64,000 nucleotides of DNA, taken from Sphingomonadaceae bacterium. Lineage in GTDB: Bacteria; Pseudomonadota; Alphaproteobacteria; Sphingomonadales; Sphingomonadaceae. A model generated the notes under the pieces. The model had not been told where the DNA came from. It did no database searches and was given only the letters and a program-made list of their open reading frames with translations. Positions within the stretch are counted from its first letter, which is position 1; every line of letters begins with the position of its first letter. Shown piece by piece: positions 1-63,888 of this stretch. The stretch spans positions 82,176 to 146,175 of the forward strand of contig JBDHSK010000009.1 in the NCBI GenBank assembly GCA_039808025.1, written 5' to 3'. The position numbers and the translations under genes were made by a program.

Positions 1-720
1 CGCCCGCACCTGACCGTTGACACCCCCCAGGCAGCGCCGCTGGGCGAGGTTTTCCGTTACATGTGGCTGCACCGGCGCACCTTCGTTGCCATTCACCTAA
101 GTTCGGCGGTGTTCGGGCTTTATGGCTACAGCCTGCTGGGATGGTACCCGACACTTCTGATCCGCAGTTTCGGGCTCAGCGTCGGCGAGGCGGGGTTGGC
201 GCTGGGGCTGAACCAGCTGGTGCTGGGCAGCCTTGGTTCCATCACCTTTGGCCTGGTGGCCGACCGGCTGGCCGCGCGGGGACGAAGCGATTCCAACCTG
301 CTGGTGGTGGCGGCAATCGGGCTGGCGGTGGTGGTTCCGGCCACCCTTACGCCGCTGATGCCCAACCTTGTGCTGTTTCTGGTGATGCTGGCGCCGGCGG
401 TGTTCCTCTACAATGGGTATTTCGGCTGCTCGGTTGCGGCCATCCAGCTGGCTTCGCCACCGTCGATGCGCGGCATCGGTTCGGCACTGTTCCTGCTCAG
501 CAACAGCCTGGTGGGGTTGTCGCTGGGCATGGTGGCGGTTCCCGTCATCGACAAATGGCTGTTCGGCGGCACCGGGGCGCTTGGCCCGGCGCTGGCAGTG
601 ATTGCTGCCGTTGCCTGCAGTGTCGCGGCCCTGATCGCGTTTTCAGGGATAGCGCATTTCGGGGCACTGGCCCGCCAGCAGGCCAGCGCCCTGCAGGAAG
701 AGGCAGCGCCGATCAGCTGA
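1..720 (+). CDS. MFS-type transporter, C-terminal part (5' end outside window)
   Basis: Frame 1 has no stop from nt 1 to the TGA at 718-720. The product is a series of hydrophobic, G/A-rich helices typical of the second half of an MFS permease. Confidence 0.6.
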   Translation, partial: RPHLTVDTPQAAPLGEVFRYMWLHRRTFVAIHLSSAVFGLYGYSLLGWYPTLLIRSFGLSVGEAGLALGLNQLVLGSLGSITFGLVADRLAARGRSDSNLLVVAAIGLAVVVPATLTPLMPNLVLFLVMLAPAVFLYNGYFGCSVAAIQLASPPSMRGIGSALFLLSNSLVGLSLGMVAVPVIDKWLFGGTGALGPALAVIAAVACSVAALIAFSGIAHFGALARQQASALQEEAAPIS

Positions 721-1483
721 TGGTGGCGCCTCCGTCGACGACGAACGCCTGTCCGGTGGCAAAGGCTCCGGCGGGGCTTGCCAGATAGACTGCCATTCCG
801 GCGATTTCGTCAGGCTCGCCGATGCGCTTCAGGCACGACCCGGCGGTAGATTGCCTGAGAATCCCGGGGTCTTCCCAGAGGGCGCGGGCGAAATCCGTGC
901 GGATTAGGCCGGGGCAGATGCAGTTCACCCGCACGCCCTGAGGCCCCAGTTCAGCCGCGAGGTTGCGTGCCAGCTGCATGTCGGCTGCTTTTGATACATT
1001 GTAGGCGCCGATCAGCGGCATGGCCCTTAGCCCGCCGATCGACGAGATGATGGTGATGCTGCCGCTACCGCGCGCGGCCATCTGCGGGGCCAGCATCTGG
1101 ATCAGCCAGTGGTTGGAGAGGATGTTGTTTGCAAGAATCTTCTGGAACTGATCGTCGCTGATGCCCTGCAACGGCCCGAAATAGGGGTTGGTGGCGGCGT
1201 TGCACACCAGTGTCGTTACCTTGCCATGGGTGCGAAGGGCATGGTCGGCCAGCGCCTGCAGGGCCTCTTTCGAACTGATGTTGGCGGCAAAGGCCGAACA
1301 GGCGTTGCGGCCGATGGCCGCGTTGATCTCAGCGGCGGCCGCCTCGCAGGCATCCTGCTTGCGGCTTGAGACGATGACATCAGCGCCATGTTCGGCGAGG
1401 CGGTGGGCAATGGCCCTCCCGATCCCCCGCGAGGACCCGGTAACGACAGCCGCTTGTCCGTTCAGGTCGAACAGGCTTCCCAT
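713..1483 (-). CDS. Short-chain dehydrogenase/reductase (SDR)
   Basis: Track ORF 713..1810 trimmed to Met110 (ATG at 1483-1481). The upstream part is the antisense of tRNA-Thr. Contains Rossmann motif TGSSRGIG, NAAT, and catalytic YNVSK (Y-x3-K). Confidence 0.9.
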   Translation of the reverse strand: MGSLFDLNGQAAVVTGSSRGIGRAIAHRLAEHGADVIVSSRKQDACEAAAAEINAAIGRNACSAFAANISSKEALQALADHALRTHGKVTTLVCNAATNPYFGPLQGISDDQFQKILANNILSNHWLIQMLAPQMAARGSGSITIISSIGGLRAMPLIGAYNVSKAADMQLARNLAAELGPQGVRVNCICPGLIRTDFARALWEDPGILRQSTAGSCLKRIGEPDEIAGMAVYLASPAGAFATGQAFVVDGGATIS

Positions 1484-57810: not shown

Positions 57811-57887
57811 GCGCCCGTAGCTCAGCTGGATAGAGCATCAGACTACGAATCTGAGGGTCGGACGTTCGAATCGTTCCGGGCGCGCCA
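57811..57887 (+). tRNA. tRNA-Arg (anticodon ACG); integration target
   Basis: 77 nt. Acceptor gcgcccg/cgggcgc, anticodon arm tcaga-ctacgaa-tctga, T arm ggacgttcgaatcgttc, encoded CCA. Confidence 0.9.
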
Positions 57888-59543
57888 TTTCGGTTCAAAG
57901 GCACGAACGCCTAGCACCGCCGCCTCTACGCCAGAGGCGGCGGTTAGCGTTCGGAGCAGTTCGCTCCGCAGACCACGGATGCGGACCTCCTTCCGGCTCA
58001 CCACTTCGACCCGCTGCGCGACCGCACGAACCTGATCTCGGGCGAACGTTCCATCGCCGTTCCGCAGCTTCTTGCGCAGCGCGGTCGCAAAGGCGCGCAG
58101 GCTCTCCGGCGTGATCGCCGGACCGATCTTCACGATATGCGCCAGCGCGCGTTCGGCATCGCCCTTGGCCTGATCGCGCGTCGCGGTCAGCTCGGCGATG
58201 CGATCCTTAAGCGAAGAATCGTTCACGTCGATGACGCCGTTCTCGATCGCATCATAGAGTCGCTTGAGCTTCGCTTCGGCCTCGGTCGCACGCCGCTCAA
58301 GATCGGCGACATGCTCGCGGCGCTGGTTCACCCATTCGTCGCGGCGTTCGAGGATCTGATCCATCAGAACTTCGAGCCGCGCCGGGTCGAGCAGCCGCGC
58401 TTCGAGATGATCGACCACGGCCTCATTGAGCCGGTCCATCGGCACGGTGATGCCCGGACAGCCGGTCGCACCCTGCCGCGCCTTCGTCGAGCAGGTGTAA
58501 TAGCGATACTCTCGGCCGACGCTGCTGGTGCCGGTGCGCAGCGTCATCGCGCCGCCGCAGCACGCGCAGAAGCAGATGCCGGTGAGCAGCGTGGGTCCGC
58601 CCACCGCCATTGGCGCCATCATCTTGGGGCTGCGCGCCTTGAGCGAGCGTTGCACGGCCTCGAACTCGGCTTCCGACACGATCGCCGGCACTTCCATGAC
58701 GGCGTGCTCGCTCTCCGGCTTCGGCGTCTTCGTCTTGTGATCGCGGGTGTTGAAACGATGCTGGCCGATATAGGTCGTGCGGGTGAGAACCTGATGCACC
58801 GCGCCCAAGCCCCAGCGCCCGCCATCGCGAGTGCGGATGTTGTTCTCGTTGAGCCAGGTGGCGATCGACTTGAGGCCCATCGGCCCTTTGTTATCAACGC
58901 CGTTGAGCGCCATGCGGTAGATGCGCCGCACTGTCTCGGCCTGGATCGGGTCGATCTCCAGCTTCTTCTTGATCTTCGCGCCACGCTCGCCTGCCGCAAC
59001 CACGCGATAGCCGATCGGCGCCCGCGCGCCGTTCCAGAAGCCTTGCCGGGCATTCTCCTTCATCGCACGCAACGTGTGCTTGCCGTTCTCCTTCGACTGA
59101 TACTCATCGAACAGCGTCATGATCTGACGCATCATCACGCTCATCGGATCGTCGCCCAAATCCTGCGTGATGGAGATCAGCCGAACGCCGTTCTTCGCCA
59201 GCTTGCGAACGTAGAACTCAAACTGGAACTGGTCGCGAAAGAACCGCGAGAAGCTGTGGACGAGGATGACGTTGAATGCCGGCGGCTTGACCATCGCCGC
59301 GTCGATCATCGCCTGAAACGCCGGCCGGCGATCGTCGGTGGCGGTGTTGCCCGGCTCGACGAACTCAGCCGCGACCTCCCAGCCGCGCGACAGGCAATAG
59401 CCTTCGATTTGGCGGCGCTGGTCGGGAATCGACAGGTCGCTCTCGGCCTGGCGGCCGGTGGAAACCCGCAGGTAGAGCGCGGCGCGGGCGGTCGCCACGA
59501 CCGGCGCCTCATCCTCATCTCGTCGCAGGGCGGCGCTGGTCAT
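57843..59543 (-). CDS. Large serine recombinase (resolvase/invertase catalytic domain + recombinase + zinc-ribbon + coiled coil)
   Basis: ALYLRVSTGRQ, with the catalytic Ser codon at 59460-59462. Cys cluster CFCACCGG...YYTCSTKARQGATGC. Long helical C-terminal region. The stop TAG (57845-57843) lies in the tRNA-Arg anticodon loop. Confidence 0.88.
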   Translation of the reverse strand: MTSAALRRDEDEAPVVATARAALYLRVSTGRQAESDLSIPDQRRQIEGYCLSRGWEVAAEFVEPGNTATDDRRPAFQAMIDAAMVKPPAFNVILVHSFSRFFRDQFQFEFYVRKLAKNGVRLISITQDLGDDPMSVMMRQIMTLFDEYQSKENGKHTLRAMKENARQGFWNGARAPIGYRVVAAGERGAKIKKKLEIDPIQAETVRRIYRMALNGVDNKGPMGLKSIATWLNENNIRTRDGGRWGLGAVHQVLTRTTYIGQHRFNTRDHKTKTPKPESEHAVMEVPAIVSEAEFEAVQRSLKARSPKMMAPMAVGGPTLLTGICFCACCGGAMTLRTGTSSVGREYRYYTCSTKARQGATGCPGITVPMDRLNEAVVDHLEARLLDPARLEVLMDQILERRDEWVNQRREHVADLERRATEAEAKLKRLYDAIENGVIDVNDSSLKDRIAELTATRDQAKGDAERALAHIVKIGPAITPESLRAFATALRKKLRNGDGTFARDQVRAVAQRVEVVSRKEVRIRGLRSELLRTLTAASGVEAAVLGVRAFEPKWRARNDSNVRPSDS

Positions 59544-59807: not shown

Positions 59808-60116
59808 CTCGGCACGCTGCCGCGTGTCCACACCTCGCACAAATGCTTCATCGCGGCGTAGCGCAGATAGAGACGTGGGGCGGCGGGCGTCATGCTTCGC
59901 CCCACGGATCGACCACCGTGGTCCGCCAATCGACGAAATCGCGGGCATGGCGAGTCGCCCGCCGCGCTCCACACGATCGCAACGATTTGTTTGTCGACCA
60001 AGCATCGATCGGTCGCACGATCCCCCGGTGTTCTGCCTGCACCATATCTCATCCTTCTTGCAACGGCCGGTTGGCGCCATGCACCACTACGCCTCAAATT
60101 CGCACCATACACCTAT

Positions 60117-60171
60117 TGATATGCAACGCAAAGCCATATACATGCATCATACTGGCGTGATCATGCAACGC
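60117..60171. promoter_or_regulatory. Pair of direct repeats TGAT(C)ATGCAACGC upstream of the AAA+ gene (candidate operator/promoter element)
   Basis: tgatatgcaacgc at 60117-60129 and tgatcatgcaacgc at 60158-60171. They lie in a locally AT-richer stretch 18-72 nt upstream of ATG 60189. Confidence 0.3.
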
Positions 60172-60188: not shown

Positions 60189-61394
60189 ATGGACCATTTC
60201 TCGATCATCCAAGCCCTTTGTCGCGCGGCAATGGCCGACGCTTCACCCGCTCTGCGCAAGCAGGTCGAGCGACTTCGTGACGCGCTGGCTAAGGATGGGG
60301 AATCCAAGCAGTCCGCCGCTCTGACCAGCATCCTCACGACCGCCGAGCGGACGAAGGAGCTTTCGCCGAGCCGGATCGAGCGCTCCAAAGCGCAGCTCTC
60401 TGGTGAGACGCTGACACGGAACACGCCTGTTCCGGTCGACCGAGAGACAGCCGCGCCGTTGGCGGAGATTCTCTTTCCGGCGGACATTCAACCGACCGCG
60501 CCGCTCTTCAACACGACCGTCAGTCACGCCATCGAGACCATTATCGAAGAATGGGCCAACTTCGACGCACTGTCGGAAATCGACATTCGGCCTTCCAAGA
60601 CCTGTCTTATTTACGGTGCTCCGGGGACGGGAAAGACCAGGCTTGCGCTTTGGATCGCGCAACAGCTCGATCTTCCCGTCGTGCTGGTGAAGCTGGACGG
60701 GCTCGTATCGTCGTTCCTCGGCACGACCGCCCGCAATATCGGGAACCTGTTCGCCTTCGCGAACCGCCACCGCTGCATCCTTCTGCTCGACGAGTTCGAT
60801 GCGATCGCGAAAGTTCGGGACGATCCGCAGGAAGTTGGCGAGATCAAGCGCGTCGTGAACGCGCTTCTGCAGAATCTCGATACGCGCCGCGATGTCGGCT
60901 TCACGATCGGCATCACCAATCACCCGAAACTCTTGGACACGGCCGTCTGGCGGCGTTTCGAGGTTCAGCTTGAGATTCCCAAGCCCGACTTCGAGATGCG
61001 AAAGGCGATCGCCGCGCATTTCATGCCGCCGGTAAAAGCCCCGGACATCCATTTGCGCCTAATCGCATGGTTCACCGAGGGCTCGACCGGCGCTGAGATC
61101 GAGTCTCTCGTGCGCACCTATAAGAAGGCCACCACCGTTCGCGAGGAGGACAAGCGCGGGCTACTCGATACGCTCCGCCAATTCGCTACGCTGAACGCGG
61201 CTCGGGTGCAAAGTGAACGCCGCGCGCTGCTGTTCGACGATTCCAGCAATCTATTTCGGGCCATGCGAGATGATCCGATCCTCGGCTTCTCGATGGCCGA
61301 CATCGGCGAGATTGCCGGCAAAGATAAATCGACGGTCAGCCGTCAACTCGGCCGAGCGGCCAAGTCTGGTGATGGGGAGACGCTAAATGGCTAG
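60189..61394 (+). CDS. Classic-clade AAA+ ATPase with novel N-terminus and C-terminal HTH-like tail (IetA-like by architecture)
   Basis: Walker A GAPGTGKT (60615-60638), Walker B ILLLDEFD (60777-60800), GITN sensor-1-like motif and VWRRF arginines. C-terminal MADIGEIAGKDKSTVSRQL. Confidence 0.85.
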   Translation: MDHFSIIQALCRAAMADASPALRKQVERLRDALAKDGESKQSAALTSILTTAERTKELSPSRIERSKAQLSGETLTRNTPVPVDRETAAPLAEILFPADIQPTAPLFNTTVSHAIETIIEEWANFDALSEIDIRPSKTCLIYGAPGTGKTRLALWIAQQLDLPVVLVKLDGLVSSFLGTTARNIGNLFAFANRHRCILLLDEFDAIAKVRDDPQEVGEIKRVVNALLQNLDTRRDVGFTIGITNHPKLLDTAVWRRFEVQLEIPKPDFEMRKAIAAHFMPPVKAPDIHLRLIAWFTEGSTGAEIESLVRTYKKATTVREEDKRGLLDTLRQFATLNAARVQSERRALLFDDSSNLFRAMRDDPILGFSMADIGEIAGKDKSTVSRQLGRAAKSGDGETLNG

Positions 61395-63888
61395 TCCCAT
61401 TCAGATCGTCCTCAATCCTGAAAACTATGAGGAGGCGCGCGACGCTGGTGGCGGAGGCGGCCGGAAGGACTTTTTCGCTCACCGCGATGCCGAGTTCACC
61501 GCCCATCGCGCCGCGCTGTTGAGCCAGATCGACACGATTGCTGGCGTTCTCAGCGCCCAAGCACAAGGCGATGTCGGCTTCGTGAAGGTCATCCTTCGTC
61601 GCGAGGCTTGGGCCAAGAGCCATCGCCCGATCGCCAGCCTGTTTCGGCACGATCGCACTCCTGTCGTTGGCGGCGGAGATCTCGGGGTTATGCTCGTCGA
61701 AGCCCGACCCGGCACGCTCCGCCAGGTGGCCGCGGAGATCGCAAAGGCCGAAACCCACACAGAAATGCGCTTCAACGAGCAGAAGCAGAAGGACGAACCT
61801 TATCCGTCTGCCCGAAAGAGCGAGACCGGCGCCATCGACCGGATCGAACTCTATGGGCCGAGCGATCGGCGCAACTTCTCGGTCGATGAGGCTGTGGCGT
61901 GGCTCTCCAATCCGATGACCGGCAGCAGCTATCAGGTCGAACTGTTCGACAGCCCGCCGCCGCGCTCTGAGTGGGACCGCCTCGACCCGAGCCATCGGCG
62001 CCTTGTCGAGAGCTTTGTTGCCGGCTTCGCCGCGCTGGATCGCGGCCTCGCCGTCGAACGCTTGCCGAACCGTCGCCACAAACAGCCGATCCTCTCTGTC
62101 CGACTGGATCAGTCTGGAGATCAGCCGGTTCTACGGCTGAATGATGCCCCGGTCAGCGAGCGGCGGCGAGAGCTTGCCGCATTCAATCCAGACATGAGTC
62201 GCCACGCCCGGCTGCTCGCCTTCCTTGACAGCCATCCGCTTGTGCGCCGGATCGAACTGCCAGGCATTGTCGTGCGGGCCGTCAGCACGCCTATCGTGCG
62301 CGCGCGGCCTGCCGATGTCACCATTCCCGCCCGCGACAGCCGCCGCAGTCATCCTCGGCTCGGGATCATCGACGGCGGAATCGGCGAAGCGCTGTCAGAC
62401 TGGGTCATCGATCGGTGGGACGTTCTTGCGGAAGAAGATACCGACCTTGCGCATGGGACGTTCATCGGCGGATTGGCTGCGGTGGGAGGTGCGCTTAACG
62501 GCGCGGAAATTTGCCCTGAGCCCGACGGCGCGGAGCTGGTCGACGTCGCAGTCTTCCCGAACGAACGCAAAGCCGGAGCCTTCGCCTCCTATTATCCTGA
62601 TGGCTTGCCGCAATTCTTCGATGAAATGGAGACAGCCATTTCGGACGCCCGCGCTCGACATGGGGTGCGCGTGTTCAACATGAGCCTGAATATTCTTCAG
62701 CCGGCGGCGCCAGATCGTTACAGTCCCCACGCAGCGCGGCTCGATCAGATCGCTGAGAGCAACAACGCGATCGTTTTCATTTCGGCGGGCAACATACAGC
62801 AGCAAGACCTTCGCCCCGAATGGCCTGCCGATGCCACGGCCGCGCTCGCCAACCTCGCCACCGCCCGCAACGATGGCCTGCTTACGCCGGCCGAGAGCGC
62901 GCGCAATGTCGCTGTGGCGGCTCTAAACCCGCCCGGCCATGACGGGTGCCTTCCATTCGCACCGACGCGCTACAGCCGACGTGGCCCGGGACTTCGCGCT
63001 GGCGTCAAGCCCGACTTGGCGCACATCGGTGGCGCGGGTTCCCAGCACCCTGAACTCGGCCACGGGCTTTTCTCGATCTTGCCGGATGGGACCATCGTCG
63101 ATGGCTGCGGGACTAGCTATGCCGCGCCCCTTGCAGCGAAGACGGCCGCTGTCCTGGATCACGCCATTGAGGGTGAGGTCTCGCGTGAAACCCTGATCGG
63201 CCTGCTCGTTCATCATGCCGAAATGCCGACTCCTTTGCAGGTCAAGGCACTCGCGCCGATCGCCAAGCATATGGCGGGGTTCGGAATGCCGCCTTCGGCC
63301 GACCGCATCCTAGAAACGGGTGACCACACAATCACTCTCGTCTTCGCGTCGCGCATCCAACGCGACCAGCAAATCAACTTCCGTTTCCAGTGGCCGGCGT
63401 CGCTGGTCGGTCCCGGAGGCAAGTGCCGTGGCCGCGCGAAGATTACGCTCGTCTCCACGCCCCCGCTCGATGCCCGGTTCGGATCGGAGTTCGTGCGCGT
63501 CAACATTAACGCTGTCTTGCAGCAGGAACAGGCCAATGGCGGGTGGAAGGGGCGGCTTGAGCCGCTCTATCTCCCGTCACGGCGGGAGGCTCCTCCGATC
63601 GAGGCGGAGCGCATCGAGCACGATCTCAAATGGAGCCCGGTGAAGGTCTTGGCGAAAACCTTCCCGCAGGGAGCGGGTCCATCCTCGAACTGGCGTCTCT
63701 TCGTCGAATATCTGACGCGGGCGGGCGAGATCATGCCCGAAGAAGGCGTGCCGTTTACGGTGATCGTGACCATCAGTGATCCCGACGCCGAACAGCCGGT
63801 GTTCAACGATATGCGTCAAAACCTTCAGGCCCTCGGCACCCAGATCGCCGACATCCGAACCGCAGCACGCATTACGCCGCGCGTGTAG
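61387..63888 (+). CDS. Cytoplasmic S8 (subtilisin-like) serine peptidase with large unassigned N- and C-terminal regions (IetS-like by architecture)
   Basis: Catalytic residues in subtilase order: GIIDGG (Asp codon 62371-62373), AHGTFIGG (His 62452-62454), SAGN, and GTSYAAP (Ser 63115-63117). No signal peptide. ATG 61387 lies 8 nt inside the ATPase gene. Confidence 0.85.
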   Translation: MASPIQIVLNPENYEEARDAGGGGGRKDFFAHRDAEFTAHRAALLSQIDTIAGVLSAQAQGDVGFVKVILRREAWAKSHRPIASLFRHDRTPVVGGGDLGVMLVEARPGTLRQVAAEIAKAETHTEMRFNEQKQKDEPYPSARKSETGAIDRIELYGPSDRRNFSVDEAVAWLSNPMTGSSYQVELFDSPPPRSEWDRLDPSHRRLVESFVAGFAALDRGLAVERLPNRRHKQPILSVRLDQSGDQPVLRLNDAPVSERRRELAAFNPDMSRHARLLAFLDSHPLVRRIELPGIVVRAVSTPIVRARPADVTIPARDSRRSHPRLGIIDGGIGEALSDWVIDRWDVLAEEDTDLAHGTFIGGLAAVGGALNGAEICPEPDGAELVDVAVFPNERKAGAFASYYPDGLPQFFDEMETAISDARARHGVRVFNMSLNILQPAAPDRYSPHAARLDQIAESNNAIVFISAGNIQQQDLRPEWPADATAALANLATARNDGLLTPAESARNVAVAALNPPGHDGCLPFAPTRYSRRGPGLRAGVKPDLAHIGGAGSQHPELGHGLFSILPDGTIVDGCGTSYAAPLAAKTAAVLDHAIEGEVSRETLIGLLVHHAEMPTPLQVKALAPIAKHMAGFGMPPSADRILETGDHTITLVFASRIQRDQQINFRFQWPASLVGPGGKCRGRAKITLVSTPPLDARFGSEFVRVNINAVLQQEQANGGWKGRLEPLYLPSRREAPPIEAERIEHDLKWSPVKVLAKTFPQGAGPSSNWRLFVEYLTRAGEIMPEEGVPFTVIVTISDPDAEQPVFNDMRQNLQALGTQIADIRTAARITPRV

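Follow-up and report, generated by a model that had tools for sequence, protein, structure and literature searches.

The ietA and ietS genes

The 64,000-nt stretch analyzed here (hereafter the window) comes from a Sphingomonadaceae bacterium (GenBank assembly GCA_039808025.1, contig JBDHSK010000009.1, positions 82,176 to 146,175, forward strand) and carries two co-oriented genes, ietA and ietS, which encode an AAA+ ATPase and a subtilase of the S8 family, respectively (Table 1). A first-pass annotation made from the letters alone had described an 8-nt overlap between the two genes. This was borne out by the open reading frame (ORF) list and by the letters of the junction (ACG CTA AAT GGC TAG), in which the ietS ATG starts at 61387 and the ietA TAG occupies 61392-61394. 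The arrangement suggests that ietA and ietS are co-transcribed and that the overlap couples their translation, in which case the amount of protease would be tied to the amount of ATPase.

The same annotation had pointed to a classic AAA core and to a subtilase active site. All of the motifs concerned were found in the translations (GAPGTGKT, ILLLDEFD, GITN, and RRF in IetA; GIIDGG, AHGTFIGG, SAGN, and GTSYAAP in IetS), and both proteins matched the corresponding Pfam families, namely AAA (PF00004, residues 140-264 of IetA) and Peptidase_S8 (PF00082, residues 349-632 of IetS).

Table 1. Features of the ietAS locus and of its surroundings. Coordinates are window positions unless a residue range or another locus (L number) is given. 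aa, amino acids; AF2, AlphaFold2; HTH, helix-turn-helix.
Feature	Position	Strand	Basis and remarks
ietA	60189..61394	+	401 aa, ATG start; ORF list
ietS	61387..63888	+	833 aa, ATG start; ORF list
Shine-Dalgarno-like GGGGAG for ietS	61375..61380	+	Within the ietA 3′ end; direct reading
Array of seven direct YGCA[ACT]C repeats (putative operator; overlaps the promoter region of ietAS)	60038..60170	+	Repeat scans, shuffles, cross-locus comparison
IetA helical N-domain	aa 1-~130	+	AF2 model
IetA Walker A	60615-60638	+	K149; alignment
IetA pore loop-1, F176-L177-G178	60714-60722	+	Alignment to VAT pore loops
IetA Walker B, D201/E202	60789-60794	+	Alignment
IetA tri-helical C-terminal HTH (predicted), aa 352-395	61242-61373	+	AF2 model, weak Pfam matches
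IetS subfamily-specific N-domain	aa 1-~310	+	Model, PADLOC coverage
IetS catalytic D329	62371-62373	+	Alignment
IetS catalytic H356	62452-62454	+	Alignment
IetS oxyanion N469	62791-62793	+	Alignment
IetS catalytic S577	63115-63117	+	Alignment
IetS C-terminal domain, mainly beta strands	aa ~645-833	+	AF2 model
DUF3223-domain gene (HamC-like), first 20 codons of 104 aa	63940..64000	+	Runs past the window end; PADLOC, Pfam
tRNA-Arg(ACG)	57811..57887	+	ARAGORN, Rfam; 3′ end ..GCGCCA is the left junction (side of the left attachment site, attL)
Large serine recombinase	57843..59543	-	Pfam Resolvase, Recombinase, Zn_ribbon_recom
orf172, 172 aa	59562..60080	-	Between the recombinase gene and ietA; ORF list
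tRNA-Arg and recombinase region, window and other copies	57811-59543; L001:2067-3799; L002:1527-3259; L013:4425-6157; L014:4431-6161; L020:4424-6156; L079:4470-6202		

Family membership and subfamily placement

IetAS was reportedly described as an anti-phage system by Gao et al. 2020, and the pair on plasmid pTiC58 is said to have been characterized as a toxin-antitoxin system by Yamamoto et al. 2009. The first-pass annotation had likened the window pair to IetAS, and full-length profile matches agreed: IetA matched the PADLOC IetA model PDLC02195 (E = 6.8e-158, residues 1-390 on profile positions 1-391 of 395) and IetS matched the PADLOC IetS model PDLC02199 (E = 4.3e-297, residues 2-833 on profile positions 3-826 of 826). 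By these comparisons the pair is therefore a clear member of an already described ATPase/protease family. The system is known and PADLOC would annotate it automatically, and it is not a new kind of system; what is new at this locus is the strictly 21-bp-phased repeat array before ietA. Other PADLOC matches on IetA (TRIP13, mad8, and PDC-S53) were weak and were rejected as generic P-loop/AAA similarity.

The pair resembles other IetAS systems, as modeled in PADLOC and in the NCBI IteA/IteS families, in having an AAA+ ATPase gene followed by a co-oriented gene for a large S8 subtilase that lacks a signal peptide, in the intact active sites of both enzymes, and in its mobile or defense island location. 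Its distance from the proteins that have been named or studied was considerable, as the first-pass annotation had allowed in speaking of a diverged or distinct variant, and this distance weighs against a simple transfer of what is known of those proteins. The curated equivalog cutoffs of NCBIfam were reached neither for IteA (269.4 bits; cutoff 510) nor for IteS (307.9 bits; cutoff 900), and plasmid genes annotated as iteA/iteS were 25-34% identical to the window genes. The founding pair was located in the pTiC58 plasmid record (NC_003065, 97873-98859 and 98863-101373): its IetA (328 aa) was 33% identical to window IetA over 200 aa, which cover the AAA core only, and its IetS matched window IetS with E = 5e-5 over just 127 aa. 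In addition, our literature search found no demonstrated experimental test of a member of the PDLC02195/PDLC02199 subfamily.

The pTiC58 pair belongs to the same PADLOC family, but its best sub-models were PDLC02196 and PDLC02198. Unlike window IetA, pTiC58 IetA has no C-terminal HTH tail and has a different, shorter N-terminus, and the two pTiC58 genes are separated by 3 nt instead of overlapping by 8 nt. Judged from sequence similarity, the window pair is thus a relative, and not an equivalog, of the proteins behind the NCBI models, and it falls in a separate, very large IetAS subfamily of Alphaproteobacteria and Bacteroidota that is distant from the pTiC58 pair and distinct from the pairs studied so far. 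A search with IetS of 1.84 billion cluster representatives (clustered at 50% identity) returned 1193 representative clusters at E ≤ 1e-3 and 346 at E ≤ 1e-30. Where the source names an organism, the nearest homologs (at least 71% identity for IetS and at least 81% for IetA) belonged chiefly to alphaproteobacterial genera; IetA relatives of approximately 48% identity were common in Bacteroidota.

Predicted architecture of the two proteins

Walker A K149, Walker B D201/E202, the sensor N244, and R255/R256 were invariant across the IetA alignments. The S-S-F-L-G segment of IetA lined up with the KYYG and KWVG pore loops of the archaeal unfoldase VAT, and F176-L177-G178 was also invariant. The AF2 model (mean predicted local distance difference test score [pLDDT] of 81) had proteasomal Rpt subunits, p97, FtsH, PAN, Vps4, and Msp1 as its Foldseek neighbors. 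Both alignment and model thus place IetA among the classic-clade AAA+ proteins, with an unfoldase-type pore loop, and because of this clade IetA is probably a hexamer. Fold, Walker A and B motifs, sensor-1, arginine fingers, and an aromatic-hydrophobic-Gly pore loop are shared with the unfoldases of the clade (VAT/p97 D2, PAN/Rpt, FtsH, Vps4, and Msp1). Unlike these, IetA is predicted to have a single AAA module between a unique helical N-domain of approximately 130 aa and a C-terminal HTH.

The N-domain corresponds to the N-terminus that the first-pass annotation had been unable to assign; a Pfam search with aa 1-134 gave no match. The HTH-like tail noted at that stage was seen in the AF2 model as three predicted helices (residues 352-361, 369-376, and 380-395), with block-mean pLDDT values of 83-90 for residues 341-390 and of 48 for residues 391-400, being low past residue 395. 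Pfam matches in this tail were weak yet co-located (HTH_38, Xre-like antitoxin HTH, Sigma70_r4_2, and MarR_2). The tail was kept throughout the subfamily, and an analogous one was found in two IetA proteins of NCBI-annotated iteAS loci. IetA of this subfamily therefore appears to combine an unfoldase pore loop with a predicted DNA-binding tail.

In IetS, the catalytic residues D329, H356, and S577 and the oxyanion residue N469 were invariant among 58 homologs of 33-90% identity. Invariant residues were also found outside the S8 domain, in the N-domain (H40, K77, and P81) and in the C-domain (E739, K748, W749, and K753). The AF2 model was of high confidence (pLDDT 90.6, predicted template modeling score 0.92), and its best Foldseek match was the pro-form of the subtilase Tk-SP, followed by KP-43 and Kex2/furin, all of which are subtilases that bear an added beta-rich C-terminal domain. 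Residues ~1-270 were matched by PDLC02199 alone, and the other IetS models begin at residues 276-319, so that the first ~270 residues set window IetS apart from the proteins that those models describe. Neither the N-domain (aa 1-310) nor the C-domain (aa 640-833) had a match in a Pfam search; against solved structures, a single-sequence search with IetS gave no match and a profile search matched the S8 core only.

No signal peptide or membrane segment was apparent in IetS, in keeping with the first-pass annotation: the maximum 19-residue Kyte-Doolittle mean was 1.24, and the polar N-terminus is part of the folded N-domain in the model. IetA, too, had no hydrophobic segment fitting a signal peptide or membrane helix. 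As far as sequence and model can tell, IetS is a subtilase that resides in the cytoplasm and retains all of its catalytic residues.

Linkage of ietA and ietS in related loci

Related loci were collected with the single IetS protein, taking one genome per species. This yielded 77 loci, mostly from Alphaproteobacteria, with one each from Acidithiobacillus, Pseudoxanthomonas, and Chitinophaga. At every locus having upstream sequence, ietA lay directly upstream of ietS, and the two genes were co-oriented in 70 of 71 loci, the exception being L080. The 8-nt overlap was kept in 63 of the 70 co-oriented loci. Because so many independent loci show the same overlap, the pairing of the genes and the overlap are above chance.

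The flanks of these pairs were hypervariable: the 493 nearest neighbor proteins fell into 371 clusters, the commonest of which, a type IV secretion system (T4SS) coupling protein, was present at merely 10 loci. The neighbors included mobile-element genes (integrases, resolvases, and transposases) and defense genes, and no conserved pathway was seen. Both the linkage of homologous pairs and their neighborhoods had been proposed as checks by the first-pass annotation, for which unlinked homologs or a housekeeping setting would have counted against its reading; the homologs were linked, and their setting was that of variable islands.

These data also bear on the notion that the pair is an inactive or decaying leftover, or has a housekeeping function as protease and chaperone outside genetic conflict. 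Frameshifted or truncated copies of ietA or ietS were present at L014, L057, L074, and L077, which suggests occasional decay of the module in some genomes. In the window, however, both ORFs are full length with intact catalytic residues, and an identical IetS sequence was found on at least 23 contigs; a housekeeping function would be at odds with the hypervariable, mobile-element-rich flanks. We consider either version of this explanation highly improbable.

A 21-bp-phased repeat array upstream of ietA

Seven direct repeats precede ietA, with the G of GCA at 60039, 60060, 60081, 60102, 60123, 60144, and 60165, that is, from -150 to -24 relative to the ietA ATG. Their spacing is exactly 21 nt, corresponding to two helical turns. 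The core pentamer is GCA[ACT]C, usually with a pyrimidine 5′ of it. The array was the sole chain of three or more such sites on either strand of the window; when the 170-nt region was shuffled 20,000 times, no chain exceeded three sites, and a chain of three arose once.

Chains of at least three sites were found in 56 of 60 distinct alphaproteobacterial loci, with five to seven sites being typical, and neighboring sites across these loci were 21 nt apart in 190 instances and 20 nt apart in 43. In an alignment of 15 loci, the conserved parts were the repeat cores and promoter-like TTGACA and TATAT elements only, and the repeats overlapped these elements (-35 and -10) and the leader. The array was kept with ietA in dozens of unrelated flanks, whatever the upstream gene. 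At L080 (6679-8001), ietA is inverted relative to ietS and the GCAHC repeats had moved along with ietA; therefore, the array at this locus lies between two genes that are now divergent. Four Bacteroidota loci had three or four copies of TGGAAAT or TGGAATT at the same position upstream of ietA, spaced by 20-21 nt, and in these loci the recognition helix of IetA reads PSTLSKQLSK instead of KSTVSRQLGR. In this comparison, a change of IetA lineage goes with a change of repeat motif (YGCAHC or TGGAAAT), and the phasing is kept. No such array was found upstream of pTiC58 ietA, whose product has no tail.

The array is probably an operator for the HTH of IetA itself, through which ietAS would be autoregulated. 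Several observations speak against this interpretation or limit it. A simple sigma-70 consensus scan upstream of window ietA found no promoter, the TTGACA and TATAT elements being evident solely in the 15-locus consensus. No exact phased repeats were present upstream of ietA in two NCBI-annotated iteA-type loci, although the IetA proteins of these loci have an HTH-like tail. Direct repeats in place of palindromes would be uncommon for an antitoxin operator, and the number of repeats ranges from three to seven in Alphaproteobacteria and from three to four in Bacteroidota. Because of this variable number, a strict model of one site per subunit is unsupported.

Alternatively, the repeats may be bound by another protein (a nucleoid-associated or regulatory protein of the host, or a protein by which mobile elements are partitioned or replicated) or may have a structural role, such as phased DNA bending. 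Direct repeats at a spacing of two turns resemble iterons or centromere-like sites, genes with a ParB_N domain are frequent neighbors of ietAS, and the operator role of the array is itself putative. This alternative is harder to reconcile with the persistence of the array in dozens of unrelated contexts, including loci whose examined flanks had no match to ParB_N, orf172, or the recombinase; with its movement together with ietA at L080; with the change of motif by IetA lineage at constant phasing; and with the lack of an array where IetA has no HTH tail. We regard it as doubtful. The product of orf172 or a ParB-like protein, considered as the main binder of the repeats, was rejected since the array is kept where these genes are absent.

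If IetA is the binder, as we favor, the phasing invites a further and more speculative proposal, which we think rather unlikely: an IetA oligomer, probably an AAA+ ring, might bind the 21-bp-phased repeats through its HTHs, and occupancy of the DNA might be coupled to the restraint of IetS, such that displacing IetA would both de-repress the operon and free the protease. By a rough estimate, the length of the array (6 × 21 = 126 bp) would be about that of the perimeter of an AAA+ hexamer, and the promoter DNA might wrap around the IetA ring or line up along it. IetA might then be displaced from the DNA, or its pore overloaded, by a phage trigger or when the element is lost. In the literature that we searched, a DNA-scaffolded AAA+/protease switch was not described for any defense or toxin-antitoxin system. 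Both the regulation of the ATPase and its hold on a cytoplasmic subtilase become approachable through the HTH, the phased array, and the pore loop.

Proposed working of the module

The ietAS module is most likely a two-gene system of the toxin-antitoxin kind, with IetS as the toxic effector and IetA as its ATP-dependent restraint. This view draws on the predicted enzymes and on analogy with relatives that have been studied. On pTiC58 and on SGI1, IetS/SgiT is the toxin and IetA/SgiA the antitoxin (PMC5006074); in both cases, as in the window, an AAA-ATPase gene precedes a gene for a subtilisin-like protein on a plasmid or island. In Bacillus cereus, IetAS acts by abortive infection, with the SPbeta protein YosG (gene yosG) as the trigger (bioRxiv 10.1101/2022.08.27.505566). 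Defense has been found to need protease activity, and plasmids with mutated ietA were unobtainable (PMC13069673). IetAS is widespread both as a defense and as a toxin-antitoxin system, and its mechanism was still called unknown in 2026 (PMC13069673).

From the above we infer the following course of events. The IetA ring, driven by ATP, would keep IetS harmless, probably by acting continuously on IetS, or on its N-domain or the region ahead of the S8 domain, through F176-L177-G178. IetA oligomers would bind the YGCAHC array through the C-terminal HTH and autoregulate ietAS. When IetA is disabled, titrated, or not resupplied, IetS would cleave cellular proteins. Its release could be brought about by a phage trigger protein, as for the Bacillus homolog, or by loss of the element, and freed IetS would lead to growth arrest or death, which would amount to abortive infection or to post-segregational killing that stabilizes the element.

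The first-pass annotation had proposed the reverse relation, namely that the ATPase licenses the protease. In this explanation, IetA and IetS would form an ATP-dependent protease like ClpXP or HslUV, in which the ATPase feeds substrates or the trigger to the protease and activates it. The pore loop of IetA is intact and of the unfoldase clade, and gene order and translational coupling would fit a stoichiometric complex. Subtilases, however, are monomeric enzymes with an open active site and not self-compartmentalized chambers that need a feeder. Moreover, the genetics of three relatives point in the opposite direction, in that the protease alone is toxic, the ATPase neutralizes it, and attempts to obtain plasmids with a mutated ietA failed (PMC5006074; PMC13069673). 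The licensing proposal is at odds with these results, and we judge it unlikely.

The toxin-antitoxin arrangement that we favor would resemble type II operons in its predicted antitoxin with an HTH, in repeats that overlap the promoter region, and in the coupling of the genes. It would differ from them in that type II antitoxins are small labile binders and IetA is a predicted ATP-driven AAA+ machine, and in that type II operators consist of one or two palindromes whereas the putative sites here are five to seven direct repeats at 21-bp phasing.

Neighboring genes and the biological role

The role of the module could instead lie mainly in addiction, i.e., in stabilizing its element by post-segregational killing through the same toxin-antitoxin mechanism, with no significant anti-phage role. 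The founding IetAS and SgiAT of SGI1 were characterized as plasmid and island stability systems (PMC5006074), and ietAS of Escherichia coli on its own gave limited protection against phages (bioRxiv 10.1101/2022.08.21.504612). In the window, the module adjoins the recombinase at the edge of an element, and at other loci it often lies near genes for T4SS coupling, ParB_N, DUF736, and DUF932 proteins. Homologous pairs nevertheless also adjoin defense genes, namely Gabija (GajA and GajB), Shedu, SoFic, AbiEii-like AAA_21, AriA, and mad3/mad8; small defense-associated genes follow the pair (DUF3223/HamC-like or DUF2188/PDC-S16); and for other IetAS systems, phage protection through abortive infection has been reported (bioRxiv 10.1101/2022.08.27.505566). 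We see a mainly stabilizing role as possible but less likely than not, and the two roles are not mutually exclusive. In this host, the module may serve phage defense, maintenance of the element, or both.

The DUF3223 gene begins after a 51-nt gap downstream of ietS and has its own AGGAG ribosome-binding site. A full copy (L001:8196-8510) encodes a protein of 104 aa that matched the PADLOC model HamC2|HamC, a Hachiman accessory protein, with E = 7.4e-11; its Pfam DUF3223 match was weak. The gene was found downstream of ietS in approximately 30 of the 77 loci (56-96% identity), all in the clade with the closest IetS, and its product may act as a third part of the system or belong to a mini-system that travels along with it. 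In two Bacteroidota loci (L090:7693-7938 and L091:7683-7913), a different small gene, with a DUF2188 domain (PADLOC candidate PDC-S16), immediately followed ietS, in the place taken by the DUF3223 gene in the alphaproteobacterial clade.

The IetA-like and IetS-like core genes are also shared with ietHAS, the variant with an SNF2 helicase (PMC13069673). Unlike in ietHAS, no helicase gene adjoins the window pair, the neighbors of which are orf172 and the recombinase gene upstream and the DUF3223 and ParB_N genes downstream.

The carrier element and its insertion at tRNA-Arg genes

An adjacent serine recombinase and an insertion at tRNA-Arg had been noted in the first-pass annotation, and Pfam domains, ARAGORN, and Rfam agreed with both. 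The module is cargo of an integrative element that carries genes for a large serine recombinase, ParB_N, DUF736, and DUF932 proteins and is inserted at the 3′ end of tRNA-Arg(ACG). Wherever the contig was long enough, the contigs with the identical IetS sequence shared the same cassette order: recombinase, small ORF, ietA, ietS, 104-aa gene, and a gene for a 684-aa ParB_N protein.

On its left side, the element abutted the 3′ ends of tRNA-Arg genes, among which five anticodons were represented: ACG (window), CCT (L001), CCG (L002, L003, L005, L013, and L079), TCG (L014), and TCT (L020). The bodies of these tRNAs differed between sites, with co-varying acceptor stems, and an alignment of the junction with six other copies of the element showed that sequence identity begins at GCGCCA|TTTCGG. 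Because an identical cassette abuts tRNA-Arg genes of five anticodons in other genomes, the element is mobile, as the first-pass annotation had supposed.

The recombinase gene crosses the junction. Approximately 552 codons come from the element (from 57888), and the last 14 codons are the complement of the tRNA gene; the length of the protein was 566 aa in the window (ORF list) and 565 or 561 aa in gene calls elsewhere. The last 9-14 codons are therefore set by the insertion site. Large serine recombinases do not usually target tRNA genes or an entire isoacceptor family, and a literature search on serine recombinases at tRNA-Arg found nothing relevant. Its large serine recombinase and its occurrence at tRNA-Arg genes of five anticodons make the carrier element of interest for research on mobile elements and on recombinases for genome engineering.

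The product of orf172 had no Pfam or PADLOC match. Its longest reading begins inside the repeat array, and the gene was called as 89 aa on some contigs. The gene was confined to the four recombinase-bearing loci, traveling with the recombinase and not with ietAS, and it might therefore encode an excision or directionality factor.

The window does not reach the right end of the element. A comparison of L001, L002, and L013 downstream of the ParB_N gene revealed a break in L001 approximately 260 nt after that gene. This break was rejected as the right end, as the sequence there (L001:11300-11750) enters a truncated outer-membrane efflux gene, which indicates a rearrangement. In L002-L004, the ParB_N gene was followed by DUF736 and DUF932 genes, and in L001 it was followed by other genes.

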